64,000 bases of DNA, from the NCBI GenBank assembly GCA_028719205.1, contig JAQUKH010000001.1:80603-144602 (forward strand). The letters run 5' to 3'. The position numbers and the translations under genes were made by a program. Positions within the stretch are counted from its first letter, which is position 1. Each line of letters starts with the position of its first letter. Shown piece after piece: positions 1 through 19,146 of the stretch. The notes under the pieces are model-generated. The model searched no databases, was not told where the DNA came from, and saw only the letters and a list, made by a program, of their open reading frames with translations. Source of the DNA: a bacterium. GTDB lineage: Bacteria; JACRDZ01; JAQUKH01.

Positions 1-729
1 CATTATAGTCTGCTATACCTGTGCTTAACGCCTCAAGAAAAGTTCCTGTAAACGCGGAATGGTTCTTATAACCGCCATCACTTACCGGCTCCTTGCCACC
101 GGCTGTCAGGGCCTGCCTTGCTTTGCGTTTGGTAATTTCCTGTAGGTAACGCGGATGGTCATCTTTCACCGCCGCCGCGCGCGTTGTAAAAAACATACCT
201 GAATAACAGGCATCCAGCACCATATAAATATGTTTAGCCTTTATGTCTTTTAAAATATCTTTAAGCTCCGTCATTGAGATCGCGGAGGATCTGTATTCTC
301 CCTGCCGGAAATCCACCGGTATGAGGTATCCATTGTCTAAACTGCTCTCCCCATGTCCGGCAAAATAAACCAGCAATCTATCCCTTTCGCCTATTTTATA
401 AGGCAATTCATCCCCAAGCATTTGTAAAATTCCGCTTTTTGTGGCTTTGTTATCATACAGAGTAAAAATATGGTCTTCCGCAAAGCCATATTTGTCCTGT
501 AACATTTGTTTTACCGCCTTAGCATCATTTACGGCATACTTAAGCTTCCCAACCTTCTGATAATCATCAATTCCCACCACGACAGCCCAGCTTTGTCCAA
601 ACGGTTCAAGCACTTCACCGTCTTTGGCAACAATTTTTATACTGCGCAAACCTTCAATTGCAAAATTTAAAGTAGTATTAAATAGAATTATAAGTATGGA
701 TAAAGCGATAATTTGTGTGCGTTTCATTA
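1..729 (-). CDS. peptidase C14 caspase-domain protein; N-terminal about 243 aa present, 3' end runs off the window. Fourth paralogue.
   Basis: Reverse translation from ATG at 729 gives MKRTQIIALSILIILFNTTLNFAIEGLRSIKIVAKDGEVLEPFGQSWAVVVGIDDYQ..., a signal peptide followed by a caspase domain. About 92% nt identity to 14610..16070 over nt 1-100. Confidence 0.7.
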
Positions 730-751
730 TTTATACCCCCCATTAATTCGG

Positions 752-937
752 CTAATCCGGATTCGCAATAGATACAAAACCACCCCAGTAAAAAGGATTG
801 GGATTTTTTTCTTTTATTTTAAGTTTTGCTTCTCTTAAGGCTTCAGCTTTACTTTTGCCATCTGCCATGCGTTTATAAAATTCTATCATCAGGTCTTTTG
901 TTTCCTCGTCAGGCACTTTCCACAGGCTCATTACCAA
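752..937 (-). pseudogene. 61-aa ORF resembling only the C-terminal end of a CHAT (caspase HetF-associated) domain; possible gene remnant
   Basis: ...DEETKDLMIEFYKRMADGKSKAEALREAKLKIKEKNPNPFYWGGFVSIANPD matches the typical CHAT C-terminus (D-x-T...FY...G-S-x-AEALR-AQ...P-YYW-A-F). No upstream CHAT body exists in the 108-nt spacer. Confidence 0.3.
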
Positions 938-1045
938 TGTTTTTGCTCCCGCGAGGATAAAGGGCCTTTAAGGCCGAACACTCCCTCTCCTTTTTTAACT
1001 TCTTATAATTATAATAAAAATATATAAACAAAAGGAAGGTTGCTA

Positions 1046-2632: not shown

Positions 2633-2660
2633 TGGGAGGAGTTCTCTTAATGTTATTCTT

Positions 2661-2709: not shown

Positions 2710-2710
2710 C

Positions 2711-4477
2711 TTATTTATTATCCTTTCTCTCTTCTTTTTTGTTACCCTTATCTCCCTTAGTTTCCGTGCTGTCCCACACCTCCTCCGTCCCCGCGGATGG
2801 AATTGGTTTTGACATCGATTGGCCCTCCTCTTCAGTCAGCCCCCTTGAGCCTGTAAATCTATTTATGTCTTTTCCATAGATCTTAAATTCATAAATTGTT
2901 TCTGACCATATAGTTTTATCTAATTTTTCCCGTACTACGCCGATATTTTTTATACCTCTTGTATTTATCTCGTAGAACGGTTTTTTAAAATCCATTCCGA
3001 ATATATTTTCAATTGGGTCAGGTTTTATTGAAGCAATCGCTTTTACCCTTTCTATTCCGGCAGGCCCTTCTATTTTCATCTTAAATCCGTAATTATCACC
3101 CGGGATTCTGTAAGTCTGGCCTGCCCTGATAAAATTGTCCTGTGAAAATTGATTAGGGAAAAGAACATATGTTTCACCGCTTGTCGCTATATCAACTAAA
3201 GTCAGATAACAGTCACGGCTTGCTTTAAAATAGAAGTTTACATATTCATCTATTTTGTAACTTTCTTTATCAGTAGCGATATTAATATCAAACTCTTTTT
3301 TCTCTTGTTTTATTCCAATTATATTTTCTATACCTTTATTCTCTAAAAATACAAAATATTGCGCTTTCTTTACAACTTTCTCATCACTTAGCAACCCAAA
3401 TTCAACAGGGAAACTGCCTTCTTTATCAACAGGAATCCCCTGGCCGTCAAATTTTACTTTACCTGACATGTCAGTAAACTCATCTCTAACCCTTTTATCT
3501 AAATTGGGAAGAAACATAAAAACAGGCGAGTTTTTTATTGGAATATTTTTATCACCGGCCATATAACTAAATTCAATTTCAAACGGCTCCTTAATTTTTC
3601 CCCCGACTAAGATCTTCTGGTTATCGCCGGAAATTTTTTTCATTATGATCCCATTAAGTATTTTATCTTTTAAATGTTCAATGTCCTGCATCGATGGAAG
3701 ATTATTAGAATTATTATTTCCGGAAATTTGGGCTGATAAATATACTTTGTCAAATACGGTTTTCCTTTCTTCCGATAAATCCCAAAGTATTTTTAATGCT
3801 AAAACAACCTCCCCGTTTTTTTCATGCTCCAATGCTGTATTATAACCTTTTGTAATGCCTTCGATTTTTTCCTGCAGCAATTTGATCTCCATCTGTTCTT
3901 TTTTATTTTCTTCTTTTTCTTTATTTTCTGCGGCTTTATCTCTTCTTTTTTCCGCATATTCTCTTATACTTCTAATTTCTTCCTGAGGCACCGAAATTAA
4001 AAGCGCGGACACCCAATAAATTTTAGAGTTTTTATTTTCATAATATTTATATTTGCAATCATACCATTCTGATGGTTTTGTCCCGCGAATGAACGCTTCA
4101 GCAGCAGCACTGCTCGCATTTTTTCCAATTGACGCTATAGTTTCTTCATTATCTTTTCTGACTACTTTATTAATATATTCTTCTATAACTTCTATATTGA
4201 CTCCGCAATACTTAATAAATTCAATATCCGCGCCCCGCTTTGCTTCATCACGGGCAAATTTTCGCTCTTCTTTTTTTGATGACATACTGACAAAATACGC
4301 GTATTTTTCATCATGTTCAGGAGGTTTTATAAACCAGGCGGGCTGGATCGGGGAGGAAGATTCAAGTAATACCTCATTAACTTCCACAGTCTTTTGAGAT
4401 TCATCTCTAACTTGCATTCCTGTGCAGCTGCAAAACATAGAAATTACAATTATAATTATAAAATATTTTTTACCCAC
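2711..4477 (-). CDS. lipoprotein with N-terminal LPP20/FlgP-like domain and C-terminal DUF4384-like domain; K/E-rich tail
   Basis: Lipobox-like FCSC; PAWFIKPP...YAYFVS pattern of the LPP20 family; the C-terminal block YVNFYFKASRDCYLTLVDIATSGETYVLFPNQ...YRIPGDNYGFKMKIEGPAGIERVKAIAS resembles the caspase-associated DUF4384. Confidence 0.55.
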   Translation of the reverse strand: MGKKYFIIIIVISMFCSCTGMQVRDESQKTVEVNEVLLESSSPIQPAWFIKPPEHDEKYAYFVSMSSKKEERKFARDEAKRGADIEFIKYCGVNIEVIEEYINKVVRKDNEETIASIGKNASSAAAEAFIRGTKPSEWYDCKYKYYENKNSKIYWVSALLISVPQEEIRSIREYAEKRRDKAAENKEKEENKKEQMEIKLLQEKIEGITKGYNTALEHEKNGEVVLALKILWDLSEERKTVFDKVYLSAQISGNNNSNNLPSMQDIEHLKDKILNGIIMKKISGDNQKILVGGKIKEPFEIEFSYMAGDKNIPIKNSPVFMFLPNLDKRVRDEFTDMSGKVKFDGQGIPVDKEGSFPVEFGLLSDEKVVKKAQYFVFLENKGIENIIGIKQEKKEFDINIATDKESYKIDEYVNFYFKASRDCYLTLVDIATSGETYVLFPNQFSQDNFIRAGQTYRIPGDNYGFKMKIEGPAGIERVKAIASIKPDPIENIFGMDFKKPFYEINTRGIKNIGVVREKLDKTIWSETIYEFKIYGKDINRFTGSRGLTEEEGQSMSKPIPSAGTEEVWDSTETKGDKGNKKEERKDNK

Positions 4478-4497: not shown

Positions 4498-4921
4498 TAG
4501 CATTCAGCAATCAGCTGTCAGCATTCAGCTTTTTAATGAAAGACGTAATCATGCGCTTAATTTCTATTACCTTTTCAGTAAGACACTGGAAATCAGAATG
4601 GCTCAGCAACTCAAGATCATGAGTAAGCAGAAGATGATATTCTAACTCACATGCAGAACCCATCGCAATCTGAAAGAAACGCGATAACTCAGCTTCTCCC
4701 TTTCTTCCGCAGCCTTCTGCAATGTTAGCTGGAATAGAAGCACACGAACGCCGAATTTGGCTTGTCAGACCAAACAACTCATTTTTTGGAAAACTTGAAG
4801 TAGCTTTGTATACAGCCAAAGTTAATTCATGAGACTTCTCCCAAACTTTCAGTTCTCTAAAATTCTTCAATTGTATCGCTCCTTATTTTGCTGACAGCTG
4901 ATCGCTGAGTGCTGACAGCTC
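4498..4921. mobile_element. family-1 palindromic element carrying a gene. Left arm 4498-4529 and right arm 4890-4920 bracket the four-helix-bundle protein gene.
   Basis: The arms gcattcagcaatcagctgtcagcattcagc and gctgacagctgatcgctgagtgctgacagct are inverted TCAGC-heptad arrays as in the empty copies. The gene's last 7 codons lie inside the left arm. Confidence 0.4.
4511..4870 (-). CDS. four-helix-bundle protein (23S rRNA intervening-sequence protein family, PF05635/TIGR02436)
   Basis: ...LAVYKATSSFPKNELFGLTSQIRRSCASIPANIAEGCGRKGEAELSRFFQIAMGSACELEYHLLL... TTG start preceded by AAGGAG. Confidence 0.85.
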   Translation of the reverse strand: MKNFRELKVWEKSHELTLAVYKATSSFPKNELFGLTSQIRRSCASIPANIAEGCGRKGEAELSRFFQIAMGSACELEYHLLLTHDLELLSHSDFQCLTEKVIEIKRMITSFIKKLNADS

Positions 4922-6127
4922 TTATATGGCTTTATACGCTTCCTTCCTCTTCAGTATCCTTTGTAAATAATCTATTGTTTCCTGTTTTGGTAATTTTTTT
5001 ATTAACGTTTCATAGACAACTTTTGAAGTCATACTATTTATAATGGCATCTGCTTTTTTGATATCTTTCACGCCTGCAAATGTTTGCGCGAGATTTCCTA
5101 TCCCCGTATTATAAGCGGCAATAACGCAGTAAAGCCTGCTTTCTACATCTTTTATATTTTTGCAGTAACCATAAAATAATAATCCAAGATAAGCAGTTCC
5201 AATATTTATGTTGTTTTCATCATTATATAAATAAGAAGGGCTCAATAAATATGACTTCCCATATAAAATTTTCGTAACATCTTTACCGGCTGTTCCAGGG
5301 ACCACCTGCATAAGCCCATAGGCGGGAATCGGAGACTTTGCCATCGGATTAAAAGCGCTTTCTGTATGTATTACTGCCAATGCCAGAGACAGATCTAATT
5401 TATTTTTATCCGTGTATTTGCTGACTGACGCTTTATATTGTTTTGCTCTTTTAAGTAAACTATCAGATGGCAGGTCTATTTTTATGCTAATTACAATCGT
5501 TTTCTCAACTTTTGACGGCGCTTCCTGAATTTTAGCTTTTGCTACTATCTTTTTTACTTCTTTAGAAACTTCTTCTTTTTTAGGCGTGGGAGTATTAAAA
5601 AATACAGGCGCCAGGATCGGATCGCTTTTCACCTCATCTTTTTTTATATTCTTTACTTCTTTAATTACCTTTTTTTCTATGTTCTGTGAAAGCTTATCTT
5701 TTTCAAAGGCCGTTTTTTTGTCTTCAACCATTAAATCTTCCAGTGCCTTTTTAATTTTATTCTCTTTTTCCTCTTTTTTTTCATTCTGGCCTACGATTAT
5801 ATCTATTTTTATATTATTATTCTCAAAATCCACAATTTTTTTTGTTTGATAATCAGGAGAGTACTCAACCCATTTTTTATTATCAGAAATTTCAGGTTTA
5901 TCCCAGTTTGCTAATATCTCTTTTTTGTAATTCTCATATTCTTCTTCTACTATATTTTTATATTGTTCAAATTCTTTTTCTATTTCCGCTTGATATTCCT
6001 CAAATTCCTGCTGTTCCTGAGCAACTCCATTTTCCTGCTGTTTAACAAAGTCTTCAAAAGATTCAGCGGATACAAATGAAAAGTTAAAAAATATCATTAC
6101 ACCGGCCAAAACAATTACTTTTTTCAT
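4922..6127 (-). CDS. MltC-like membrane-bound lytic murein transglycosylase (SLT domain) with E/K-rich coiled N-terminal region
   Basis: HTESAFNPMAKSPIPAYGLMQVVPGTAG catalytic motif. Start chosen at ATG 6127 (MKKVIVLAGVMIFFNFSFVSA signal peptide, GGAAGGAA RBS). The longer ORF to 6160 would start with TTG inside the repeat. Confidence 0.75.
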   Translation of the reverse strand: MKKVIVLAGVMIFFNFSFVSAESFEDFVKQQENGVAQEQQEFEEYQAEIEKEFEQYKNIVEEEYENYKKEILANWDKPEISDNKKWVEYSPDYQTKKIVDFENNNIKIDIIVGQNEKKEEKENKIKKALEDLMVEDKKTAFEKDKLSQNIEKKVIKEVKNIKKDEVKSDPILAPVFFNTPTPKKEEVSKEVKKIVAKAKIQEAPSKVEKTIVISIKIDLPSDSLLKRAKQYKASVSKYTDKNKLDLSLALAVIHTESAFNPMAKSPIPAYGLMQVVPGTAGKDVTKILYGKSYLLSPSYLYNDENNINIGTAYLGLLFYGYCKNIKDVESRLYCVIAAYNTGIGNLAQTFAGVKDIKKADAIINSMTSKVVYETLIKKLPKQETIDYLQRILKRKEAYKAI

Positions 6128-6148
6128 TTTTTGTTTTTCCTTCCAATT

Positions 6149-6227
6149 AGCTATCAGCAATCAGCGCTCAGATATCAGCTAATTCAAATAAAAGCTGAAT
6201 GCTGACAGCTGATAGCTGAACGCTTAG
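6149..6227. repeat. family-1 TCAGC-heptad palindromic element (complete, empty)
   Basis: agctatcagcaatcagcgctcagatatcagct - aattcaaataaa - agctgaatgctgacagctgatagctgaacgct. Confidence 0.7.
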
Positions 6228-6898
6228 TATTTCTTAAACTTCTTGATAATCCAAATAACAACATATATTGCCACACAAAACCCTACAAAAAACGCAAGTA
6301 TAAGTTCATTGGTTCCTAAACTAAAACCGCTTTTTTCAGATATGGAAGATTCCGATAACGGTTCCACTTTTGCTTCAGATTTAGCTTCTTCCTTGACTTC
6401 TTCTTTTACCGCTTCTTTCACTTCTTCTTTTTGTATTTCTTTTGGTTTTTCTACTGCTATTTTTTCAACCTGTTTAATTTCAACTGTTTCAGCTTTTATA
6501 TCCGCTAAAATCAAATTTTCTTTTTTATTTTCAACCGCAGCCCCTTTACGAAGCTCTTCTAATTTATCTATTTCCTTATCTAGCTCATCCTGCCCATTTT
6601 TTGCTTTATTCTCCTGCCATAATGCTTCTTCGTTTATTTTTTTTTCTTTTTCGGGAGCAGCTTTTCCTTCGGTTTTAGCCTCATTTGAAATACTAATTGA
6701 TTTTTTGTCTTCTGAAATTTCTTTTTTAAACTTATTAAAATCCTCTAAATTTTCTTTCTTGTGCTCCTGAAAATCCTCTTTCATCTTTTGACTGGTTTCT
6801 CCCTCAAGCTCATTTTCAACGTCATCATATGTTTCAGCAAATAAAAACGTACTATTTAATAACATTATTATTCCGATAAAAATAAGTAATTTTTTCAT
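6224..6898 (-). CDS. secreted E/K-rich low-complexity protein with C-terminal transmembrane anchor
   Basis: Signal peptide MKKLLIFIGIIMLLNSTFLFA (ATG 6898, AAGGAG RBS); C-terminal LILAFFVGFCVAIYVVIWII; contains the ALWQENKAKNGQDELDKE motif shared with 7562..8164. Confidence 0.5.
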   Translation of the reverse strand: MKKLLIFIGIIMLLNSTFLFAETYDDVENELEGETSQKMKEDFQEHKKENLEDFNKFKKEISEDKKSISISNEAKTEGKAAPEKEKKINEEALWQENKAKNGQDELDKEIDKLEELRKGAAVENKKENLILADIKAETVEIKQVEKIAVEKPKEIQKEEVKEAVKEEVKEEAKSEAKVEPLSESSISEKSGFSLGTNELILAFFVGFCVAIYVVIWIIKKFKKY

Positions 6899-6924
6899 TC
6901 TATTATTTCTCCTTTGAAGTTTAA

Positions 6925-7031
6925 GCATTCAGCTCTCAGCTATCAGCACTCAGCTTTTTAATAGCATTCATCCATCTGCATTCAGTTTTTGAATGGATTT
7001 AGCTGATAGCTAGTAGCTGACCGCTGAACGC
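6925..7031. repeat. family-1 TCAGC-heptad palindromic element (complete, empty)
   Basis: gcattcagctctcagctatcagcactcagc ... agctgatagctagtagctgaccgctgaacgc. Confidence 0.7.
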
Positions 7032-7037: not shown

Positions 7038-7496
7038 TCATTGCAACACCATCCATACATGAATTTCCCCTGATTTTTCATCTTTCCAGATCTCTTCAAT
7101 ATTCGCTTTTACACTTTTACTATCAGACGTCTGAACGCTATAAGTACCCATATATGTCTTTGCGTCATTCTGTGTACCGGTTGTCGCGGTTACAAGATAA
7201 CTATTAACCTTTACCCCTAACTGCCTTGCTATATCATCCAAGGCCCTTTCTATAGCCAATTTTCTCTGTTCATTTTCACTTTTTATATGTATTCCGGATG
7301 TCCCAACACCGCCAATATTGCCTTTCATTCCCGGATTCCAATACCATTCCGGTTTACCATTTACTATTTTTGTCCCTTTTGATGTAACGTTCGTAATTAT
7401 TGATCCGCTATTATCCGCTTTTTTTACGCAGGATGACGCGGTAAACGCCAATATAACTACAGGTATTAGTAATAACCGGCTAAAAATATTTTTCAA
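7038..7496 (-). CDS. LPP20/FlgP-like lipoprotein
   Basis: Lipobox TASSC; PEWYWNP...GGVG...A..A..LA pattern. TTG start. Confidence 0.55.
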   Translation of the reverse strand: MKNIFSRLLLIPVVILAFTASSCVKKADNSGSIITNVTSKGTKIVNGKPEWYWNPGMKGNIGGVGTSGIHIKSENEQRKLAIERALDDIARQLGVKVNSYLVTATTGTQNDAKTYMGTYSVQTSDSKSVKANIEEIWKDEKSGEIHVWMVLQ

Positions 7497-8230: not shown

Positions 8231-8337
8231 GCAATCAGCAGTCAGCTTTCAGCTTTTTAATAGCTTTCTGCGTTCAGTTATCATTAGTCAGCTTTTGAAT
8301 AAAATTAGCTGATAGCTGAATGCTGAAATCTGATTGC
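8231..8337. repeat. family-1 TCAGC-heptad palindromic element (complete, empty), located in the 5' leader of 7562..8164
   Basis: gcaatcagcagtcagctttcagc ... agctgatagctgaatgctgaaatctgattgc. Confidence 0.7.
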
Positions 8338-8414: not shown

Positions 8415-8431
8415 TGCAAGAACCATGCCAA
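8415..8431 (-). promoter_or_regulatory. sigma-54 (-24/-12) promoter. Minus-strand sense TTGGCATGGTTCTTGCA.
   Basis: TGGCAT-N5-TTGCA with correct spacing; 16/18 identical to the promoter at 16190-16206. Confidence 0.6.
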
Positions 8432-8576: not shown

Positions 8577-8591
8577 ATGCATGGAATTCCA
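8577..8591. promoter_or_regulatory. putative EBP enhancer (UAS) palindrome ATGCATGGAATTCCA, about 155 bp upstream of the sigma-54 promoter
   Basis: Same 15-mer as in the 16342-16359 palindrome, with the same spacing to the promoter. Confidence 0.45.
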
Positions 8592-10195: not shown

Positions 10196-12466
10196 TTATT
10201 TATATTCACTGCCACGAACAGGCCAAACAGAATAAAAATAGTTATCATTAAACAAACGAAGCTCTTGACCGTTAGAAAAATCAACAATTCGGCCATCAAT
10301 ATTTATCCAATAGCCCTGACTTTCAGGCACTAAATTAACAAAAGGATGTTGCTCTTGTTTATTATAAACAGTTTTCATTCTTATCAACTCTTTATATGTT
10401 GGCAATCTCCATCCAAAATATTTTTCATAATTTAAATTATTACATGCTAATTCAGCATTTTCCCAAATCACTTTGTTTTTTAAATAATTTGCGTCCTTTA
10501 ACCACAATAGTTTTGTAACATTATCATAAATAACACCATTCCCTAAATCTATGAATTTTGAAGGAAATAAAGCATATTTATTAATTAGTTTGGACCCAGT
10601 TAAATCCATAAATCTTGAAGAAAATTCATATTTTTTATTTAACGCATCATCAATAACATATGCTTCATTAATACTAAAATCTTTTGTCGTTGGAAAATTC
10701 ACTTTGATTTCAGCCCTTAGCAAATTATTTTCAAAATGCTGTTTCAACACTTTTGCCTCTTCTCTTGGAATTAGTATATTTTGTTTACATGTTACTTGAA
10801 TTCCTTTGATTGGTTGTTTTATTCTTATGGTAACGGGGTAAAAATTAAACTCGGAATTGTACTGTCGAAGTTCTAATATTAAATCATTGTATGTTAAAAC
10901 AAATTCATTTTCCGAAAGCTGTTTTAGCCTTTCAATAAATGGCGTGATTTGTTTATAATATTCAGATTCAATTTTACTCGATAATGCCTCAAATTCAGGC
11001 GTTTGCTCTTTATCTAAATTTTCTTTTTCCTTTAATATTTCAATTGACAATCTGTTCTTAAATTCAATTTCTGACTCAAACTCATCTTTATTAGAGTTTA
11101 ATATTTTCCCAAATTTCTCATTAATTCTTATACATATCTGGTTTATTCCATTAGTCAATTCTTTTCTATAATTTTTCTGAATGTCTTTTAATTGTGCGTC
11201 TATTTCCTCCATCTCGTTTATTGTAGCTTCAGGAGAAATTGATCTTAATGTTGCACCTTCCAGCGATTTCCTTTTACCTTCAACTTCCTGTTTAAGCATT
11301 GCTAATCTGGTTTCTTCTTCCTTCTTTTTTTGGATCAATTCATTTTCTTTTTTTAATCGTTCCTTTTCTTCGTCTTCCCTTTTTTTACGGTTTTCTTCCA
11401 ATGCATCTTGTTTTAATTGTTCCGCCCTTAATTTTGCTTCAATTTTTATTTTTTCGATCTCTGCCTGATATTTTGCACTTTCATCATTTGCCTTTAAAGC
11501 AGATTCTTCCAATAATTTTAACCGATCAAGTTCTTTTTGCAGGTTTACAACTTCCGCTTGATTATCTTCCAGTTTGCGTTCAATTGAAGGGATAAAAACA
11601 TAATCTCCTAATCCATATAACTCTCCATATTTTGGTGTTTGTATATGGTTTCTCGCGTTTGCGTCTGAGAATACTTTTTCTTTAAGCGCAGTGCTTATTT
11701 CAGTGGCTGTTATAAAATCATCTGTATTTTCCAGAAGTTCAATAAACCTGCCGGTAAAAACCGAATGGCCTTTAGGCCCGCCGTCTAATACCTGCTGGTC
11801 TTTATCCCCCGCGGTTAACACTTGTCTGACCCGCTCTTTAGAAATTTCTTTCAAATAGTTAAAATCCCTTGCTGTTTCTCTATTTGCCCCTCTTTTTGTT
11901 ACAAGAATTCCGCCATAGCACGCATCAACAATATAGAAAATATGTTTTGCCGGTATTCGTTTTGAAATATCATCTCTAATCATTGTCATAGAAAAATTTT
12001 TATATAATTCTTCTTTTTTGAATGTTCCGTCAAATGGTATAAGATAACCCAAATCCCCTTCCGCTGTTTTTTCCGTATATCCATGCCCTGCCCAGAAAAC
12101 AAAAATCGCGTCTTCTTCTGTAACCTGGCTAAGATTACCTAAAAGAATTTTAGTAATATTTTCTTTTGTAGCATCTTTATTGTATAAGGTAATGATCTTA
12201 TCAAATTTAAAATTCTTCCTGATAGCGTCTTCAACCCCTTTAGCGTCCTTTACCGCATAAGCCAATTGCATGTCATATGGCAAATTTTCATATTGGTCAA
12301 TTCCAATAATAACCGCGTAAGATTTGTTATATAACTTAAGTTCTTTTTTCTCTCCCGATGTTTTATCAACGGCAATGATTTTTATACCGCGGGTATCATT
12401 AATTGCGTATATTCCGCTTGATATAAAACAAGCAATAATTATTAAAAATAATAATTTTAATTTCAT
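10196..12466 (-). CDS. secreted peptidase C14 caspase-domain protein + long coiled coil + C-terminal DUF1566 (Lcl C-terminal-like) domain
   Basis: Signal peptide; FWAGHGY and VDACYGG dyad motifs; E/K/R-rich coiled coil; C-terminal WRLPTYKEL...WPVRG, characteristic of DUF1566. Confidence 0.8.
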   Translation of the reverse strand: MKLKLLFLIIIACFISSGIYAINDTRGIKIIAVDKTSGEKKELKLYNKSYAVIIGIDQYENLPYDMQLAYAVKDAKGVEDAIRKNFKFDKIITLYNKDATKENITKILLGNLSQVTEEDAIFVFWAGHGYTEKTAEGDLGYLIPFDGTFKKEELYKNFSMTMIRDDISKRIPAKHIFYIVDACYGGILVTKRGANRETARDFNYLKEISKERVRQVLTAGDKDQQVLDGGPKGHSVFTGRFIELLENTDDFITATEISTALKEKVFSDANARNHIQTPKYGELYGLGDYVFIPSIERKLEDNQAEVVNLQKELDRLKLLEESALKANDESAKYQAEIEKIKIEAKLRAEQLKQDALEENRKKREDEEKERLKKENELIQKKKEEETRLAMLKQEVEGKRKSLEGATLRSISPEATINEMEEIDAQLKDIQKNYRKELTNGINQICIRINEKFGKILNSNKDEFESEIEFKNRLSIEILKEKENLDKEQTPEFEALSSKIESEYYKQITPFIERLKQLSENEFVLTYNDLILELRQYNSEFNFYPVTIRIKQPIKGIQVTCKQNILIPREEAKVLKQHFENNLLRAEIKVNFPTTKDFSINEAYVIDDALNKKYEFSSRFMDLTGSKLINKYALFPSKFIDLGNGVIYDNVTKLLWLKDANYLKNKVIWENAELACNNLNYEKYFGWRLPTYKELIRMKTVYNKQEQHPFVNLVPESQGYWINIDGRIVDFSNGQELRLFNDNYFYSVWPVRGSEYK

Positions 12467-12470
12467 AATA

Positions 12471-13544
12471 CTATCTTTGACCTACATTATGTCTTTTGAC
12501 ATCATAAAAAGCCACACTTGATGCTTTTATATTATCTTTATTTTTATCTTTAATGTTTGAATCAATATAATATGGCAATGAGAATGAAAAATAATTACCA
12601 ATATCTTCTATTTTAATATTATTATCTTCGGGATTAAAACTGAGAGTAATATCAATGCCGCTTTTTACATTTAGCTTAAGAGCACCACTTAACACGTCAT
12701 CCCATTTTAAAAAATTTAAATTATTAGTATTAAAATTACTATATTGACTAGATTTGACAAATCCACTAACATATTTAAAAATATTCCCTTTTTCATCAGA
12801 TAAAGTTGGGTTAATTTCATAAACTCCTATTATTAAAATCTCTTTATCCAATTGATTAACAACATTTAATAACACTTCAGCTCTTCCCTTTGATAAAACT
12901 TTTACTTGTTTTACAGTAAAAAGTAAATCTCCAACTTTCTTTGAGTTTGAATTTCCGACTGAAGGGACATAGGAAGGAGTATTTTCAGAACTTTGCTGTT
13001 CAAAGGGCTGATTTGATTCAACTATTCCTCTCTCCAGAAGTTCATTTATCGCCTGGGTCTTTGCGATATTTCCTGAAGAAGCGCCAATCACCTTGGCGGT
13101 ACTTATATCTATAATTTTAACTGAAAGCCTTACATTGTCGCCAAACGGGGTAATACTTCCTGTGATAATTGCTTCTACTCCGGCTATCTGCCCCAGCTTT
13201 TTGGCTGATTCAGGGTTTACTAAATCAGATAGTGAAAGTTTATGTTCCCGTAAAAGAGCTTTAAGGTGAATTCTATCCACCACTTCAAATCCTTTCCCTG
13301 CAGAGGTAAGAGTTACTGAAAACTCCTCTGCTAAAAATCTCCCTAATTCGGTTACATTACCCTGAAGGTCTGTGAAATCAACCACAGCTATTGACTTCTT
13401 CCCCGCTTGTGATATATTTTCTGCCATTGTGGCAGACAGGGCGCTTATTTCTTTTTCATAAGCCTTCGATAAATTTGAACCAGACAGTAAAAATACTGTT
13501 GATAAAAGGCAAACAAGAAAAAACTTCTTAATGATACTTTCCAT
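12471..13544 (-). CDS. FlgO/CsgG/LpoB-like fold periplasmic protein (paralogue B)
   Basis: Signal peptide; IAVVDFTDLQGNVTELGRFLAEEF...VVDR..L..LL.E..L pattern. The N-terminal 190 aa are near-identical to 13601..14590. Confidence 0.5.
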   Translation of the reverse strand: MESIIKKFFLVCLLSTVFLLSGSNLSKAYEKEISALSATMAENISQAGKKSIAVVDFTDLQGNVTELGRFLAEEFSVTLTSAGKGFEVVDRIHLKALLREHKLSLSDLVNPESAKKLGQIAGVEAIITGSITPFGDNVRLSVKIIDISTAKVIGASSGNIAKTQAINELLERGIVESNQPFEQQSSENTPSYVPSVGNSNSKKVGDLLFTVKQVKVLSKGRAEVLLNVVNQLDKEILIIGVYEINPTLSDEKGNIFKYVSGFVKSSQYSNFNTNNLNFLKWDDVLSGALKLNVKSGIDITLSFNPEDNNIKIEDIGNYFSFSLPYYIDSNIKDKNKDNIKASSVAFYDVKRHNVGQR

Positions 13545-13600: not shown

Positions 13601-14590
13601 TCATTTTGTTATTGGAATATTGCGAAGCTGGGCAATAATCCATTTGTTGTCTCTATAGCATGGGATTTCTAGCAACGATAGTTTGCTAACATTTTTTGAA
13701 ACTGTTTCAATTTTAAATGTTAATCTCGTTGGCACATCAGAAACAAGCAAATTTCTAGCACATCTGTCCTTATGATTTCCAAGCTCAATACCTTCCGGAC
13801 AATATTCATTCCCAAAATCATCAAAAATTCTTGATGATTTTGTCCAATCAGTACTACCAGTACAACCACAAATCATTATTTCCCTATCGTTTTTATCTTT
13901 ATTAGTAATTATTAAATTACAGGTTATTGTCGTATTAGAAATTTTACACTCTTTTACCTCAAAAAGAAAATCATCCACTTCCACACTTTGCTGTGCTTTT
14001 GTTGGTTTCTGTGATGATATTGTTTGTATTGGTTTACTTACATCTTGTGCTTGAACTTCTGCTTCTATCCCCCTCGCCAAAAGTTCATTAATAGCTTGTG
14101 TTTTAGGAATATTTCCAGCAGTGGCGCCAATAACCTTGGCAGTACTTACATCTAATATTTTAATGGTAAGCCTTACACTTTCACCAAAAGGGGTAAGGCT
14201 TCCTGTAATAATCGCTTCTACTCCGGCTATCTGCCCCAGCTTTTTGGCTGATTCAGGGTTCACTAAATCGGAAAAGGCAAGTTTATGTTCCTTTAAAAGG
14301 GCTTTAAGATGGGTTCTATCTATTACTTCAAATCCTTTTCCAGCCCCGGCAAGAGCAACCGAAAACTCCTCTGCTAAAAATCTTCCAAGCTCGGTTACAT
14401 TACCCTGAAGGTCTGTAAAATCAACTACGGCTATTGTCTTCCTGCCAGCCTGTGTAATATTTTCTGCCATCGTAGCAGACAAAGCGCTTATTTCTTTTTC
14501 ATAAGCCATAGAGAAACCAGAGCCTGACAGCGAAAATATTATTGATAAAAAACAAATAAAATAAAACTTCTTCCATGCATCTTTTTTCAT
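13601..14590 (-). CDS. FlgO/CsgG/LpoB-like fold periplasmic protein (paralogue A) with Cys-rich C-terminal domain
   Basis: Same N-terminal domain. Start at ATG 14590 with AGGAGG RBS; the longer ORF to 14620 would overlap the upstream stop. The C-terminal 120 aa contain 8 Cys. Confidence 0.5.
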   Translation of the reverse strand: MKKDAWKKFYFICFLSIIFSLSGSGFSMAYEKEISALSATMAENITQAGRKTIAVVDFTDLQGNVTELGRFLAEEFSVALAGAGKGFEVIDRTHLKALLKEHKLAFSDLVNPESAKKLGQIAGVEAIITGSLTPFGESVRLTIKILDVSTAKVIGATAGNIPKTQAINELLARGIEAEVQAQDVSKPIQTISSQKPTKAQQSVEVDDFLFEVKECKISNTTITCNLIITNKDKNDREIMICGCTGSTDWTKSSRIFDDFGNEYCPEGIELGNHKDRCARNLLVSDVPTRLTFKIETVSKNVSKLSLLEIPCYRDNKWIIAQLRNIPITK

Positions 14591-14609
14591 TAAATCATTC
14601 CTCCTGTAT

Positions 14610-16070
14610 TTATTTCCCAAATATTAAAGTTAATTTGTTAATAAATTCATCAATTAACGGTTCAGCTAATTTTTTAGTAAACTGATCATCTCTTTTTCCA
14701 TTAATCGCCTGTTTCTGATCCAATCCGAATATCTTTTCTGTTCTATTAATTGAAACAACTTTTTCTTTATTAGAAACTTTGTTTAGGGTTAGAATAGCCT
14801 TAGCTATATAAGATTTTAAACCCATGTTATCCTGAGAAAATTCAATCGAGGTTTCTATAGCTAAATTTAAATCGGGAGTAACATCCTCTAATTTTTCTGT
14901 TTTTTTCTTGTAATCATCTGCTTCTTCATTATTACCTCTATTACGGGCAACTTTTTCTTTAGCAGTAAAAATGTTTTTTTGGCCTGTGATTTCATCCAAT
15001 TTTTGTGAATTATAAATATGCCAACCAGCTTCTGTAAGTTTTTGATCCAATAATGTCTCTAAAATATCACTACCTTCTCCTTTTATTTCCATAATTACAT
15101 TTTTAGGAACAAGTTTTATCTGTTTTTCTTTTGATTCTACAACAGGAGCTGATACTTCCTCTTTTTGAGTTACAGGTTGTGGAGCAGTAACCTGTTTCGG
15201 TGAAGAATCAGACGGCACAATAAATACAAACTCGCCTCCCTCAGATCCCGGCAAATTGCCAAATTCCGGTGTCTGTTCTGCAAGCTCCGCTACTTTTGGC
15301 TGAATATAAGAGTTTATTTCTGAGGCAGTGATAATACCATCGCCATTATAGTCGGCCATACCTGTACTTAACGCCTCTAGGAAAGTTCCTGTAAAGGCGG
15401 AATGGTTCTTATAACCGCCATCACTTACCGGCTCCTTGCCTCCGGCGGTTAGGGCCTGCCGGGCTTTCCGTTTTGTGATTTCCTGTAAGTATCGCGGATG
15501 TTCCTTATCCACCGCCGCTGCGCGCGTGGTAAAGAACATACCTGAATAACAGGCATCAAGCACCATATAGATTTGTTTAGCCTTGATATCTTTTAAAATA
15601 TCTTTTAGCTCGGTCATGGAAATCGCGGTGACTCTGTATTCCCCCTGCCGAAAATCAACCGGTATGAGGTAACCATTATCTAAACTACTTTCCCCATGCC
15701 CGGCAAAATAGACTAATAATCTATCTCTATCACCTATTTTATAGGGCAATTCGTCCCCAAGTATTTGCAAAATTCCGCTTTTTGTGGCTTTATTATCATA
15801 CAGGGTAAAAATATGATCCTCCGCGAATCCATATTTATCCTGAAGCATTTGTTTTACCGCCTTAGCATCATTTACAGCATACTTGAGCTTTCCAACCTTT
15901 TGATAATCATCAATTCCTACCACCACCGCCCAGCTTTGTCCAAAGGGCTCCAGAACTTCCCCGTCTTTAGCGACAATCTTAATACTACGTAATCCCTCTG
16001 CGGCATAACCCAAAGTTGTATTAAATATAACCGATATTATGAATAAAACTATAATACGTCTGATATGCAT
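14610..16070 (-). CDS. secreted peptidase C14 caspase-domain protein with uncharacterised C-terminal domain
   Basis: About 85% aa identity to 1046..2500 over the caspase domain (YFAGHG, LDACYSG); the C-terminal 200 aa have no recognisable motif. Confidence 0.85.
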   Translation of the reverse strand: MHIRRIIVLFIISVIFNTTLGYAAEGLRSIKIVAKDGEVLEPFGQSWAVVVGIDDYQKVGKLKYAVNDAKAVKQMLQDKYGFAEDHIFTLYDNKATKSGILQILGDELPYKIGDRDRLLVYFAGHGESSLDNGYLIPVDFRQGEYRVTAISMTELKDILKDIKAKQIYMVLDACYSGMFFTTRAAAVDKEHPRYLQEITKRKARQALTAGGKEPVSDGGYKNHSAFTGTFLEALSTGMADYNGDGIITASEINSYIQPKVAELAEQTPEFGNLPGSEGGEFVFIVPSDSSPKQVTAPQPVTQKEEVSAPVVESKEKQIKLVPKNVIMEIKGEGSDILETLLDQKLTEAGWHIYNSQKLDEITGQKNIFTAKEKVARNRGNNEEADDYKKKTEKLEDVTPDLNLAIETSIEFSQDNMGLKSYIAKAILTLNKVSNKEKVVSINRTEKIFGLDQKQAINGKRDDQFTKKLAEPLIDEFINKLTLIFGK

Positions 16071-16189: not shown

Positions 16190-16206
16190 TGCAATTACCG
16201 TGCCAA
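16190..16206 (-). promoter_or_regulatory. sigma-54 (-24/-12) promoter. Minus-strand sense TTGGCACGGTAATTGCA; about 120 nt upstream of the caspase start at 16070.
   Basis: Consensus TGGCAC-N5-TTGCA. Confidence 0.65.
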
Positions 16207-16341
16207 AGTGTTCATTTGTACAAAAATAAATAAAAATAATCTGTTTCTCTCAATTTTGTTCCGGATTCCCGATAAAAACATTCGTAAATTACGGCATACG
16301 TTAAAAAAAATGACCTATTCCTCAAAAGCCTCAATTATGAA

Positions 16342-16359
16342 TGCATGGAATTCCATGCA
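16342..16359. promoter_or_regulatory. perfect 18-bp palindrome TGCATGGAATTCCATGCA, putative EBP enhancer (UAS) about 146 bp upstream of the sigma-54 promoter, abutting the EBP stop codon
   Basis: Seen directly; its core recurs at 8577-8591 with equivalent spacing to the second sigma-54 promoter. Confidence 0.5.
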
Positions 16360-19146
16360 TCAATTCTCTTTTAGAACTATACCAATTAATTCTTCAATAT
16401 ATTTATGATATTTTTTTGGTAAATTTTTAAAACGCCGCTGACATTCTTTAGTTGCTGACTCTTTATTTTGATATTCTTTTATCACATCAACAACATTTTG
16501 GTAATACTCATTTAAACGCTGAACAAGTAATTCACTCTGCTCAGGGTCATTTGTAAGTTTCGAGGCTGTTGATTTGATATCCCATACATTTTCGGAAAGT
16601 TTCTGGAAACAAATTCCTTTAAACCTTGAACCTACAGTTCCTCTGGCCTGATTAAGCATACTTGCTGTATTTTCTATTACAAAATTATTGCTTCTCATAA
16701 TTTTCAGAAATTCCTCATCTTCAACATTTTCAAATATTTCCATATGTTCTTTTAATGATATATTATTCTCAATACCAGCTGTCTTTGGCAAACAGATATC
16801 TTCCTCTCTGATAACAGCTTTTTCCGATAAAGCTATGGCATTGAGCACTACGCTTCTCAAATCCCTTACATTCCCAGGCCAGGAATAGGAATTAAGTTTT
16901 ATCTTAGCTTCATCATTAAATTCTTTTCCAGGAGCGTTGGATATTTTTACAAAATATTCCGCCAATAATAAAATATCGTCTTTTCTTTCTCTTAAAGGCA
17001 CCAATTCTATAGTATGAACTTTTAACCTGTAATATAAGTCTTCTCTAAATCTTTTATTTGCTATCTCATCTTCAATATTTTTATTGGTAGCGGCAATAAT
17101 TCTAATATCTACTTTTATCGGGATAGTGTCCGTTCTTCCGACTTTATCAATAGTTTTCTGTTCCAAAACCCTTAATATCTTCGCCTGCAAATCATACTTC
17201 ATATCTCCTATTTCATCTAAAAACACAGTACTCTTATCTGCCAGTTCAAATAATCCTTTTTTATCACTAATCGCGCCTGAAAATGCTCCTTTTTTATGCC
17301 CGAACATCTCGCTTTCTAAAAGCGTTTCAGGCACAGAAGGTACATTAATCTCTATCATTGTTTTATCACTTCTTGAACTCATTTTATGTATTGCCTCGGC
17401 AAATAATTGTTTACCTGTACCTGTTTCTCCCAGAATAATAACCGGCTCTTCGCTCATCGCGAACTTTTTAGCGGTTTGAAATAATTCAAGCATTTGCTTG
17501 TTCTGAGTTACAATACCAAAAGACCTGCATTCATCTATAAGTTTTCTCATCTCTTTGGCAGGTTTTTCATAAATATTGATAAATGGCTTTGTGGTTTTTT
17601 TTGATAATTTTATAATCTTCTCTAAAAGATCATTACGTTCCTTTTCTAATTTATTAATATTATTTTTGTCCGTTTTTATGCTATCTTCCAACTGCTTGAC
17701 TTTGTTTTGAAAATCTTTTTTTTCTTCATTAATATATGCTTCATAATCCAATAATTTATCCTGCATATCTTCCAGTATTTCTTTTTTCCGGAACAGATCA
17801 TTATTAATATTTTTAAGGTTTTGCATAAGCTGTTCAATTTCTTTTCCTCTTATCAAATAATCTCCCAGCAAATTCACGCTCCCAAAAATAAAAAGTCCCA
17901 TAAGCGGATAAAGATCAGCCAGCGATATTCCTGAAATTATAAAAAGTGAGTATGATAAAACAAGATATATTGGGATCCCGATAATAGACGACAAGAAAAC
18001 TATTATTCCATTAGCTCTCACAGATAATAATCCAATTATAGATATCAGAATGATCATTATGACAAAGCTGTAAAATATGGGGACTTCCCTGATAAAATTA
18101 CCGCTTAGTATAGTATAAAGAATATGAGAATGGATACCTATCCCCGGGTAATTAGTATCTATTGGAACATTATGAACGTCCTTATTAACCGAAGAAGCGT
18201 TTCCGACAAGGCATATTTTGTCTTTTAATCTTTCAGAAAGTTCCTTTTCCCGTTCAGGTTTCCCTTCCGGGTTAAGAACAGTAACATACCAGAATGGTTC
18301 TAAATAATCATGTTCATTCACATTCCATGGCTTTATGTAATTGATCCACATCTCGCCCTTATCGTTAATAGGAATAACAAGATCCATTATTTTTCCATCA
18401 GGGTATTTTGCCTCCGGAAGAATTATTGAATGCCCGGGTTTAACTATGATTTTATCTTTTGGTACCTGAAGATAATCACAGGCCAGTAAAAGATTCACTG
18501 AAGGGAAAAGATTACCGTCAATATCAATTAAAAGAGCTGCCTTACGGAAAACATCATTTTTCTCATTTTCTTCATTTCCTGTGCTAATGTGACCAATACC
18601 TTTTGCCGCTTTTGCAAGGTCATCATTTAGTAATGAACCATTTCCGGAAAACCAGAAACTTTCCGGTATACTATTTATTGTTAAAAAATTCTTTTTTATT
18701 ATTTCTATGAAGGGTAGCGGGTATTTGTCTAAAGTAAATGCCTCGTTTTTATTTTTAACTAAATTAAAACTTACCGGCCAATAGACATTTCCTGCCTCGT
18801 TAGTCGCGTTGATCAATGAAAGCGGGATATCACCTCTCAGTATGAAATCATAAAAGATTTCTTTAACGCCATAACTTTTCAATTTATTGATCATTTTAGC
18901 GTGTAGATCAGGGGTAGGATAACCAATTTGCGGGATTGTTTTTACGTCGTCCACTGAAATAGTAACTATTTGTTTTTTTATTTTGAATGGGTCGGAACGA
19001 AGATTCCCGCAGATTTTAAGTTTAAGATCATAAAGTTTATTATTTAACGATTGAATAGGTGGGATAAAGATACCTATAAAAACTAATAGTAAACACAGGA
19101 ATAGAATATAAAATCTAGTGTTAATACCGGAAATTTTATTCTCCAT
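16360..19146 (-). CDS. sigma-54-dependent transcriptional activator (bacterial enhancer-binding protein) with N-terminal CHASE2 extracytoplasmic sensor, TM segments, coiled coil, AAA+ sigma-54 interaction domain and Fis-type HTH
   Basis: GETGTGKQLFAEAIH Walker A; GAFSGA (GAFTGA variant); ESEMFGH; C-terminal NTASMLNQARGTVGSRFKGI HTH. Confidence 0.8.
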   Translation of the reverse strand: MENKISGINTRFYILFLCLLLVFIGIFIPPIQSLNNKLYDLKLKICGNLRSDPFKIKKQIVTISVDDVKTIPQIGYPTPDLHAKMINKLKSYGVKEIFYDFILRGDIPLSLINATNEAGNVYWPVSFNLVKNKNEAFTLDKYPLPFIEIIKKNFLTINSIPESFWFSGNGSLLNDDLAKAAKGIGHISTGNEENEKNDVFRKAALLIDIDGNLFPSVNLLLACDYLQVPKDKIIVKPGHSIILPEAKYPDGKIMDLVIPINDKGEMWINYIKPWNVNEHDYLEPFWYVTVLNPEGKPEREKELSERLKDKICLVGNASSVNKDVHNVPIDTNYPGIGIHSHILYTILSGNFIREVPIFYSFVIMIILISIIGLLSVRANGIIVFLSSIIGIPIYLVLSYSLFIISGISLADLYPLMGLFIFGSVNLLGDYLIRGKEIEQLMQNLKNINNDLFRKKEILEDMQDKLLDYEAYINEEKKDFQNKVKQLEDSIKTDKNNINKLEKERNDLLEKIIKLSKKTTKPFINIYEKPAKEMRKLIDECRSFGIVTQNKQMLELFQTAKKFAMSEEPVIILGETGTGKQLFAEAIHKMSSRSDKTMIEINVPSVPETLLESEMFGHKKGAFSGAISDKKGLFELADKSTVFLDEIGDMKYDLQAKILRVLEQKTIDKVGRTDTIPIKVDIRIIAATNKNIEDEIANKRFREDLYYRLKVHTIELVPLRERKDDILLLAEYFVKISNAPGKEFNDEAKIKLNSYSWPGNVRDLRSVVLNAIALSEKAVIREEDICLPKTAGIENNISLKEHMEIFENVEDEEFLKIMRSNNFVIENTASMLNQARGTVGSRFKGICFQKLSENVWDIKSTASKLTNDPEQSELLVQRLNEYYQNVVDVIKEYQNKESATKECQRRFKNLPKKYHKYIEELIGIVLKEN

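Follow-up and report, generated by a model that had tools for sequence, protein, structure and literature searches.

A membrane-bound sigma-54 activator with a CHASE2 sensor beside exported caspases with exchanged tails: a putative conserved envelope module

To our knowledge, bacterial homologs of caspases are abundant, and almost none has a known role. Most of the discussion of these proteins assumes cytoplasmic functions in cell death or defense. Here we analyze a locus encoding caspases that are predicted to be exported, located at positions 1–19,146 of a 64-kb stretch (hereafter, the window) of the bacterial contig JAQUKH010000001.1. The locus is a run of co-oriented minus-strand genes that begins with a sigma-54 activator carrying a CHASE2 sensor domain and continues with the genes of four caspases (CaspA to CaspD, Peptidase_C14), interspersed with those of LPP20-like and DUF4384 lipoproteins, two FlgO/CsgG-like periplasmic proteins and several other proteins. 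An earlier note, made from the sequence by eye, had identified most of these genes and proposed that an outer-membrane-associated assembly exports or displays the caspases; it did not mention the DUF4062/HATPase_c_4 gene, a 234-amino acid (aa) anchored protein, a CHAT remnant and a tRNA-Val gene, all described below. Nearly all of its by-eye assignments were upheld by profile searches. We used profiles from Pfam, NCBIfam, PADLOC and Rfam, Foldseek for fold searches, hhalign for profile–profile comparison and AlphaFold2 for structure prediction, and a comparison set of 172 fetched loci totaling 2.04 Mb (L-numbers label these loci, and P-numbers label homologous proteins). Signal peptides and lipoboxes, as well as the transmembrane (TM) helices and motifs of the activator, were called by inspection of the sequences.

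The activator (928 aa; 16360–19146, minus strand) combines a CHASE2 domain (PF05226; E = 5e-30, 105 bits against a cut-off of 26.3) with a Sigma54_activat domain (PF00158; E = 2e-63, 213 bits), in agreement with the earlier note. Its parts are arranged in the order N-terminal TM segment, periplasmic CHASE2 domain, three TM helices, coiled coil, AAA+ domain, lid and conserved C-terminal region; the hydrophobic segments encompass approximately residues 11–31, ahead of CHASE2, and 355–376, 381–404 and 409–432, after it. The AAA+ domain contains the Walker A motif GETGTGKQ and the motif FLDEIGD. The protein scores under all curated NCBIfam cut-offs, and we know of no ligand for any member of the CHASE2 family. 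The best sigma-70-like promoter of the region, TTTACA-17-TATAAT (19217–19189), precedes the activator gene.

Sigma-54 promoters for both transcripts predicted in the earlier note were recovered by a site scan. Promoter 1, TGGCACGGTAATTGC (16191–16205, minus strand), is a perfect match to the consensus TGGCAC-N5-TTGC of the −24/−12 elements and is located in the gap ahead of CaspA, about 120 nucleotides (nt) before the CaspA start. Promoter 2, TGGCATGGTTCTTGC (8416–8430, minus strand), contains one mismatch, lies within the 509-bp gap ahead of the LPP20 gene and is followed by a leader of about 240 nt with a long hairpin. Only three sites with at most one mismatch are present in the 64 kb, and sigma-54-like sites occur in the fetched loci at about 4 per Mb. 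Upstream of promoter 1, a candidate enhancer (upstream activating sequence), the perfect 20-bp palindrome ATGCATGGAATTCCATGCAT (16341–16360), abuts the stop codon of the activator gene; a second copy, TGGAATTCCATGCAT (8577–8591, minus strand), which corresponds to three-quarters of the palindrome, is found upstream of promoter 2. Here, the half-site form of the palindrome is ATGCATGG-N0-2-TTCCATGCAT, and the promoter form is TGGCAY-N5-TTGC. A 15-mer of the palindrome has three exact matches in the 64 kb, compared to 0.24 expected even with two mismatches allowed, and three matches were reached in none of 100 shuffles. Counting from the GG of GGAATTCC up to the first base of TGGCA, the copies precede the −24 elements of promoters 1 and 2 by 149 and 160 bp, respectively, that is, they lie in the usual enhancer range, and the two spacings differ by about one helical turn. 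Cognate −24/−12 promoters with a nearby candidate upstream enhancer are, then, present beside the activator gene.

The same arrangement was detected in two other genomes. In L170, a metagenome-assembled genome (MAG) with a GC content of 29%, the activator is 55% identical to that in the window over 897 aa, and the palindrome ATGCATGGATTCCATGCAT is located 72 bp upstream of the sigma-54 site TGGCATTCAAATTGC; downstream, there are an ortholog of the DUF4384 lipoprotein (37% identical, full length) and then a C14+PEGA protein. In L171, a Nitrospirae MAG (GC 46%), GTGGAATTCCATGCATGG lies 133 bp upstream of a perfect sigma-54 site, and the operon consists, in this order, of the genes for an LPP20 protein, an LPP20-DUF4384 protein, the CHASE2 activator (E = 8e-137) and a WD40+C14 lipoprotein. 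The palindrome is present in these two loci and in none of the other 170. The C-terminal part of the activator, about 120 aa, is retained in both orthologs together with the palindrome. Because both promoters in the window carry the same upstream palindrome, and this palindrome recurs with the activator in two more genomes, the regulatory half of the interpretation, namely, control of both adjacent operons by the CHASE2-sigma-54 activator, as anticipated in the earlier note, is well supported by sequence comparison.

The caspases of the locus, all encoded on the minus strand, are CaspA (14610–16070; E = 9e-18), CaspB (10196–12466), CaspC (1046–2500) and CaspD, the 5′ part of which (727–1) leaves the window. 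The Peptidase_C14 scores of the four proteins range from 57.8 to 65.2 bits (cut-off 21.4). The catalytic His in the (F/W)AGHG motif and the catalytic Cys in DACY(S/G)G are present in all four, and both columns are invariant in an alignment of 14 sequences; each of the four starts with a signal sequence of the basic-hydrophobic-A-x-A type. CaspA, CaspC and CaspD are 83–95% identical in protein sequence (CaspD and CaspA, 94.7% over 227 aa) up to the sequence GSEGGEFVF and unrelated beyond it, with 88–89% DNA identity over the 300-nt repeats compared; CaspB is divergent, being about 40% identical to the other three.

The tails are all different. CaspA ends with a domain of about 190 aa of no detectable family: there was no match in Pfam, HMM (hidden Markov model) or homolog searches, and hhalign comparisons with the profiles of FlgO, LPP20 and the FlgO partner described below were negative. 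By eye, it may follow an LpoB-like beta-alpha-beta pattern. Searches of PDB sequences gave a weak match of CaspA to metacaspase-4 (E = 8e-4) and otherwise nothing informative. In CaspB, the catalytic domain is followed by a long coiled coil and an Lcl_C domain (that is, DUF1566; E = 5e-11), and in CaspC, by three ricin-B repeats (RicinB_lectin_2, E = 2e-24). Full-length CaspD (P0123, 794 aa), encoded on the same 197-kb MAG contig, consists of C14, a coiled coil and two Laminin_G_3 domains, so that LamG complements the ricin-B, DUF1566 and unassigned tails listed in the earlier note. CaspC is chimeric, with the first 20 or so aa of the LamG module kept ahead of the ricin repeats, which are encoded by three tandem units of 141 nt. 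Given that CaspA, CaspC and CaspD are 83–95% identical as far as the catalytic domain extends but differ in their tails, the locus apparently contains one catalytic cassette that is re-targeted through exchange of tails (ricin, LamG, Lcl_C and the unassigned domain). In Legionella, Lcl_C forms the head of the Lcl adhesin that binds glycosaminoglycans (PMC11162425). Homologous caspases elsewhere carry FGE-sulfatase, PEGA, CarboxypepD_reg, TPR, polysaccharide deacetylase, LamG, PKD and WD40 tails. A remnant of a CHAT protease, which also has the caspase fold, sits between CaspC and CaspD (752–931, minus strand; the last 59 aa, E = 9.7e-15, profile positions 229–287 of 289). A CaspD ortholog (802 aa, caspase domain 82% identical) was found in a close relative (L087, 1–4360), flanked by genes for a beta-barrel-like protein and a secreted HEAT-repeat protein.

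Operon 2 encodes three lipoproteins that the earlier note had assigned to the LPP20 family. The first (7562–8164, minus strand; lipobox SAGC) scores well above the Pfam cut-off (41.8 bits against 25.9), and the second (7038–7496, minus strand; lipobox ASSC), a probable member, below it (17.5 bits); the latter is also matched at 18 bits by the profile of the N-terminal domain of the DUF4384 family. The third protein (2711–4477, minus strand) comprises an LPP20-like N-terminal domain, a coiled coil, a beta-rich middle part and a DUF4384 domain (E = 2e-26). Pfam detects no LPP20 match in its N-terminal domain; the L170 ortholog matches LPP20 at 16.6 bits, and another homolog, P0243, weakly. In the hhalign comparison, the profile of this domain (the window protein with 11 homologs) matched an alignment of Pfam-supported and candidate LPP20 proteins with a probability of 84% and E = 7e-6, over the region of the P-x-W...FVG...A..A motif, and the FlgO and FlgO-partner controls were below 1%. 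The DUF4384 protein is, then, probably a fusion of an LPP20-like domain with DUF4384. An AlphaFold2 model of this protein, built from six sequences, had a pLDDT of 52 and was unfit for a fold search.

DUF4384 is a large family (3,337 representative clusters at E ≤ 1e-3), and its fusions to caspases and other proteases are known from the literature. Its recurrent association with caspases, mentioned in the earlier note, holds in the loci compared here: a caspase gene is located within 10 kb in 6 of the 7 DUF4384 contexts, and the seventh (L172) contains an adjoining subtilisin gene. The ortholog P0242 is 37–40% identical to the window protein over its full length, P0243 is similar in the DUF4384 part, and P0244 is a fusion of FlgO, PEGA and DUF4384. 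Judging by these comparisons, no other structural gene of the module is conserved as consistently as that of the DUF4384 lipoprotein. The LPP20 lipoprotein and the 234-aa protein share a segment of about 30 aa, ALWQE(F/N)KAKNGQDELDKE, encoded by 76 nt with 84% identity at the C-terminus of the former (7579–7654) and in the middle of the latter (6559–6634); the common motif, ALWQExKAKNGQDELDKE, may represent a docking peptide.

The two FlgO/CsgG-like proteins of operon 1 (protein 1, 13601–14620, likely start ATG at 14590, by the start of P0043; protein 2, 12471–13544; both minus strand) do match the Pfam families named in the earlier note (E = 1e-9 to 1e-12; FlgO 37.7 and 40.9 bits against a cut-off of 22.6, with the CsgG model scoring equally or higher), and protein 1 is matched by the family HMM at E = 4e-117. 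The AlphaFold2 model of protein 2 (pLDDT 85) consists of a signal peptide and a helix, a 120-residue alpha/beta domain (residues 51–172), a disordered linker and an immunoglobulin (Ig)-like beta-sandwich (200–352). Foldseek matched this model to LpoB (4q6l, E = 2.6e-7), GNA1162 (4hrv), FlgT (3w1e), the Vibrio LPHT ring (8z5n), pre-pore CsgG (4uv2) and PelC (5t11); the matches to residues 51–172 range from E = 2.6e-7 to 2e-5, with a TM-score of about 0.65 on the target. By the predicted fold, the FlgO/CsgG-like proteins belong to the LpoB/GNA1162/PelC/CsgG superfamily. The CsgG profile is matched only at positions 6–106 of 210, and there is no lipobox; because the 120-residue domain covers only the first half of that profile, no channel-forming part is evident. 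A full CsgG fold with transmembrane hairpins, a lipid anchor, csgE/csgF and other curli genes were not seen, and no flagellar genes (flgP, flgT or basal-body genes) were found in the window or in those family contexts for which each gene had been annotated.

The FlgO/CsgG-like family is widespread (more than 1,100 matches, with the N-terminal domain about 50% identical across phyla). In a metagenome scan anchored on these proteins (80 loci, 547 kb, mostly short contigs), a caspase gene was near the FlgO-like gene in only 3 loci (about 4%), in each case upstream on the same strand, with a DUF4384 protein also encoded in two of the three. None of the module genes was found in the first FlgO-like contexts (three, including Brocadia, plus one closer). 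In 36 of 85 loci, a conserved partner gene lies directly upstream of the FlgO-like gene (L001, 8980–10011; L003, 9004–9960; L088, 1951–3258; and 33 more). This gene encodes a membrane protein of about 320–460 aa with no Pfam family on record in L001 and L003 and is not present in the window locus; together, the two genes make up an uncharacterized two-gene unit in Brocadia, Nitrospirota and others.

Comparison of gene neighborhoods, which the earlier note had recommended as a check, separates a core from its additions. The activator, DUF4384 and caspase genes recur together, and FlgO-like genes are absent from L170 and L171. The conserved core, as delineated from these sequences, consists of the activator, the candidate operator, the sigma-54 promoter, the LPP20/DUF4384 lipoprotein and the exported or lipid-anchored caspase, a combination that recurs in three or more genomes from different lineages. 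Elsewhere, caspase, DUF4384 and FlgO-like genes co-occur in L105, L124 and L168, and caspase and FlgO-like genes in L136. In L124 and L168, genes for an extracytoplasmic function (ECF) sigma factor and a zf-HC2 anti-sigma factor are located beside the caspase/DUF4384/FlgO-like set. L168 encodes caspases (one of them C14+PKD+FGE-sulfatase), the ECF sigma/anti-sigma pair, a FlgO+PEGA+DUF4384 fusion and TPR proteins, along with a 23S_rRNA_IVP protein, a trypsin-like protease and a FlgT_N-like protein. Judging from gene content, this structural set is under ECF sigma/anti-sigma control in these genomes. All module proteins in the related loci carry a signal peptide or a lipobox. The FlgO-like genes are recruited accessories outside the core of the module, and so are the transglycosylase and four-helix-bundle genes described below.

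The interpretation that we favor, with a probability of roughly 0.55, is that the locus is an expanded form, in this genome, of a conserved module of extracytoplasmic caspases that is controlled by its own membrane-bound sigma-54 activator. The support comes from sequence and comparison: the architecture of the regulator, the promoters, the candidate operator, synteny and the extracytoplasmic addressing of the products. Under this scenario, an envelope or external cue would act on CHASE2, and the activator would oligomerize on the palindrome while embedded in the membrane, by analogy with ToxR, and open both sigma-54 promoters. Operon 1 would yield CaspA, the two periplasmic proteins with the LpoB fold and CaspB, and operon 2, the LPP20 lipoproteins, the anchored acidic protein, the MltC-like transglycosylase, the LPP20-DUF4384 lipoprotein, CaspC and, probably, CaspD. 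The caspases would act outside the cytoplasm, with the interchangeable ricin, LamG, Lcl_C and other tails steering one catalytic domain to varied glycan-bearing targets, perhaps the envelope or matrix of the cell itself, perhaps foreign surfaces. The roles suggested in the earlier note, processing of cell-surface or of prey or host glycoproteins, or regulated cell death, are hypothetical. The lipoproteins probably would hold or regulate the proteases at the outer membrane.

Several observations weigh against this scenario. The sigma-54 contact loop of the activator is GAFSGA instead of GAFTGA, a single conservative change, and Pfam detects no helix-turn-helix domain (no HTH_8 match) in the C-terminal region of the protein, which has no PDB relative either. 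Operon 1 includes a cytoplasmic DUF4062 gene. The neighbors of the CaspD ortholog in L087 differ from those in the window, so that the caspase genes apparently move between contexts. The number of activator-bearing genomes examined is small (n = 3). None of 80 caspase-anchored GTDB loci (42–51% identity; Acidobacteriota, Burkholderiales and Stenotrophomonas) contained FlgO-like, LPP20, DUF4384 or SLT genes in phmmer and jackhmmer searches, so most caspases of the family are outside such a module; these loci represent different caspase subfamilies and are a poor test, and the clustering of neighbors was swamped by antisense open reading frames of high-GC DNA. Finally, everything said here of transcription, DNA binding, export, protease activity and substrates is predicted from sequence.

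Among the alternatives, the one that we consider possible, even if improbable, is a proteolytic signaling loop, in which the LPP20-DUF4384 lipoprotein, or something similar, serves as bait for cleavage by an exported caspase, and the product, or its loss, is sensed by CHASE2 or, elsewhere, by an anti-sigma factor with a periplasmic TPR region, resulting in feed-forward control. The location of the L171 activator gene inside its own sigma-54 operon, between the DUF4384 and caspase genes, implies autoregulation and fits such a loop, whereas the activator gene in the window has a sigma-70-like promoter of its own and is outside the sigma-54 operons. The association of the L124 and L168 sets with ECF sigma and zf-HC2 anti-sigma genes points in the same direction as the former; regulators of this type are commonly controlled by regulated proteolysis. 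There are precedents as well, in the operons of caspases with sigma-70-type factors already known from Myxococcus and other bacteria (PMC3501461) and in the Craspase-Csx30 pair of type III-E CRISPR. Yet the cleavage site and the interaction are hypothetical, and four paralogs with lectin-type tails look more like effectors directed at varied external targets. More speculative still is a broader version, in which the module is a widespread envelope signaling and effector system, with caspase cleavage of the LPP20-DUF4384 lipoprotein making or removing the CHASE2 cue and triggering a burst of lectin-targeted caspases that would remodel the cell's own surface or attack neighbors, an extracytoplasmic counterpart of a caspase cascade.

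The remaining explanations appear unlikely. FlgO and FlgP (an LPP20 protein) form outer-membrane ring scaffolds in the flagella of Vibrio and Campylobacter, and the assembly proposed in the earlier note was of this kind: a ring or channel of FlgO-like and LPP20-like proteins, comparable to CsgG, the Vibrio H-ring or the Campylobacter basal disk, by which the caspases would be exported or displayed. This proposal draws on the Pfam matches of both families, on the presence of FlgT, the LPHT ring, CsgG and PelC among the Foldseek matches, on the FlgT_N-like gene in L168 and on the transglycosylase of operon 2, which could make room in the peptidoglycan. The proposal is not supported, given the half-length CsgG match, the closest folds being those of the non-channel proteins LpoB and GNA1162, the lack of a lipobox, the absence of FlgO-like genes from L170 and L171, the rarity of a nearby caspase in the family, the different membrane protein that is the usual FlgO-like partner and the result for the GTDB caspase loci. 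Marginally less probable than such an assembly is a mosaic island, that is, a variable region by tRNA-Val that gathered unrelated envelope genes, duplicated caspases and selfish elements, so that the clustering reflects no single function. The tRNA-Val gene directly upstream, the uneven GC content of the region (0.32–0.41), the CHAT remnant, the DUF4062 and IVP genes and repeat arrays within it, and the other neighbors of the CaspD ortholog in the close relative are all compatible with an island; but the palindrome, promoter, activator, DUF4384 lipoprotein and caspase are kept in two distant genomes, the same candidate enhancer is found at both operons, and there is no integrase or attachment site (att) repeat in the window. 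The least likely possibility, in our assessment a very improbable one, is programmed cell death or anti-phage defense with caspases as executioners. The PADLOC 'caspase' model matches the proteins at E = 1e-16 to 1e-18, there is a sub-threshold match to the NCBIfam model 'caspase, EACC1-associated type', and the adjoining DUF4062/HATPase_c_4 gene gives weak matches to components associated with prokaryotic Argonaute (pAgo) and SIR2. However, the PADLOC matches are confined to the generic catalytic domain, the module includes no STAND/NTPase sensor, EACC1, CRISPR or nuclease partner, and the signal peptides or lipoboxes (by eye) of all caspases here and in the related loci imply extracytoplasmic action. 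As for system-specific PADLOC components, the search yielded only the generic 'caspase', the RtcR-type AAA+ domain and the weak pAgo-associated matches (pAgo/SIR2-PNTD) on the DUF4062 gene.

Several features of the locus have been described in other settings. The survey of bacterial metacaspases and orthocaspases by Asplund-Samuelsson et al. (2012, PMC3501461) reported secreted and membrane homologs with N-terminal signals or TM segments, varied tails (FGE-sulfatase, deacetylase, TPR and peptidoglycan-binding), operons with up to three caspase genes and conserved operons of caspases with sigma-70-family factors in Myxococcus, Anaeromyxobacter and others, to which L124 and L168 correspond in kind. 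Unlike those operons, the module described here employs a CHASE2-bearing sigma-54 activator with a conserved candidate enhancer, and the survey reports none of the LPP20/DUF4384 lipoproteins or LpoB-fold partners found here. In type III-E CRISPR systems, Csx30, the substrate of a caspase-like protease, can carry a C-terminal DUF4384 domain and controls an ECF sigma factor (bioRxiv 10.1101/2022.08.17.504292). Craspase (Cas7-11/Csx29 cleaving Csx30, with RpoE) thus resembles the module in linking a caspase-fold protease to a DUF4384 protein and an alternative-sigma switch, but is cytoplasmic and RNA-guided, with a CHAT protease and an ECF sigma factor, whereas the present module is predicted to be exported, has no CRISPR genes, and relies on C14 and sigma-54.

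With the Vibrio FlgO/FlgP/FlgT H-ring and the Campylobacter FlgP basal disk, the locus shares FlgO-family and LPP20-family proteins, sigma-54 control, a nearby transglycosylase, fold matches to FlgT and the LPHT ring and, in L168, a FlgT_N-like protein; it differs in the absence of flagellar genes from the window and the related loci, in the best fold matches and in the mostly non-flagellar partner of the family. From the LpoB/GNA1162/PelC/CsgG superfamily, to which residues 51–172 of FlgO-like protein 2 are similar in fold, the protein differs in lacking a lipid anchor and the CsgG transmembrane hairpins and in possessing a C-terminal Ig-like sandwich, and no genes for penicillin-binding proteins, pel or curli are found near the FlgO-like genes of the window. 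Activators of the ToxR/CadC type combine, in a single polypeptide, a periplasmic sensor, one or more TM segments and a cytoplasmic DNA-dependent activator. The CHASE2 activator is similar only by analogy, in its membrane-bound architecture of one polypeptide, its output being an AAA+ sigma-54 enhancer-binding module rather than a winged-helix sigma-70 activator. Sigma-54 is generally biased toward envelope functions (PMC3162934). In the literature searched, we found no description of the CHASE2-sigma-54 activator, its operator or the caspase/DUF4384/LPP20/FlgO-like neighborhood, in accord with the view of the earlier note that the combination is not a described system, and the activator, the FlgO-like protein and the DUF4384 protein all fall outside the curated models of NCBIfam and PADLOC.

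Altogether, this looks like a real, conserved and undescribed envelope module, less exotic than the proposed assembly and unusually tractable through its conserved operator. It offers a testable handle on exported caspases, with a regulator of their own, a candidate operator of 20 bp shared across lineages, two promoters and a small set of partners, the LPP20/DUF4384 lipoproteins. It also documents a sigma-54 activator that appears to be an integral membrane sensor in itself, and the apparent re-targeting of caspase catalytic domains by cassette-like exchange of glycan-binding tails. If the regulatory link is true, reporter fusions of the palindrome and promoter would make it possible to screen for the ligand of CHASE2.

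Among the additional genes of operon 2, the one at 4922–6160 (minus strand) encodes a lytic transglycosylase with a signal peptide, in which the SLT domain is confidently detected (E = 2e-23; 82 bits, above the cut-off). A specific MltC identity was set aside, with NCBIfam PRK11671 matched at E = 6e-48 and 164 bits against an equivalog cut-off of 375, Mltc_N at 20.5 against 22.6, and no lipobox; hence we denote the protein MltC-like, as in the earlier note. The secreted, acidic 234-aa protein (6224–6928, minus strand) is rich in Glu and Lys, has a C-terminal TM anchor and belongs to no family in Pfam or NCBIfam. The four-helix-bundle protein (4511–4870, minus strand) is a 23S_rRNA_IVP protein by Pfam and TIGR02436, consistent with the by-eye description. 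Genes of this family lie within two independent caspase/DUF4384 loci (the window and L168, 13176–13616 / L169, 3742–4209), and there is no second copy in the window. A diversity-generating retroelement, with this gene as Avd-like component and Lcl_C, was considered and rejected: the Avd model scored 26.6 bits against 80 and Pfam bAvd 28.5 against 40, no reverse transcriptase was among the Pfam matches for the open reading frames of the window, and no repeat of the template/variable (TR/VR) kind involving Lcl_C was found in the first 20.5 kb.

A 7-nt repeat, (NNNCAGC)n or its complement, forms seven arrays, at 2681–2701, 4502–4529, 4890–4917, 6194–6221, 6927–6954, 8233–8253 and 8308–8328. All of these are intergenic within the second sigma-54 operon; the rest of the 64 kb contains none, and neither do shuffled sequences. 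Inverted pairs of arrays flank the 23S_rRNA_IVP gene and the gene of the 234-aa protein, and the arrays also produce a long hairpin in the leader of the LPP20 gene (z = −3.0); a role as sites of RNA processing or recombination is possible. In operon 1, the gene for the cytoplasmic DUF4062 + HATPase_c_4 + Fic-like_C protein (8674–10176, minus strand) starts 19 nt downstream of CaspB and has a higher GC content (0.40). A DUF4062 homolog also follows a FlgO-like gene in L119 (8555–8776). Membership of this gene in the module is uncertain: it may be an insertion, and its position could be a coincidence or mark a further accessory.

On the activator side, the locus is separated from the rest of the window by a tRNA-Val(CAC) gene (19440–19516, minus strand), upstream of the activator gene and with its 3′ end toward the locus, followed by a gene for a small secreted protein and pyrG. 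The Rfam scan detected only this tRNA and a spurious mir-80 match on a repeat hairpin. Although tRNA genes are classic insertion points of islands, integration at tRNA-Val was dropped from consideration, with no att repeat of the tRNA 3′ end in the window. Beyond it, an outer-membrane biogenesis supercluster of about 40 kb (20312–64000) contains pyrG, kdsB, rfaE-like genes, lpxL, lpxK, lpxC, lpxB, lpxI, hexapeptide transferases of the lpxA/D type, fabZ, bamA, skp, an msbA-like ABC exporter, kdtA and four heptosyltransferase genes, and further encodes a ClpC-like ATPase with an McsB-like arginine kinase and a MoxR ATPase. From this cluster of lipid A, lipopolysaccharide, BamA and Skp genes, it follows that the host is a diderm. 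Within the same region, the gene at 31535–32425 (plus strand) encodes a fusion of a protoglobin domain with the membrane domain PsiE (phosphate-starvation-inducible), a combination that is unusual and resembles a sensor; adjoining genes on the plus strand encode a GGDEF response regulator and a hybrid histidine kinase.

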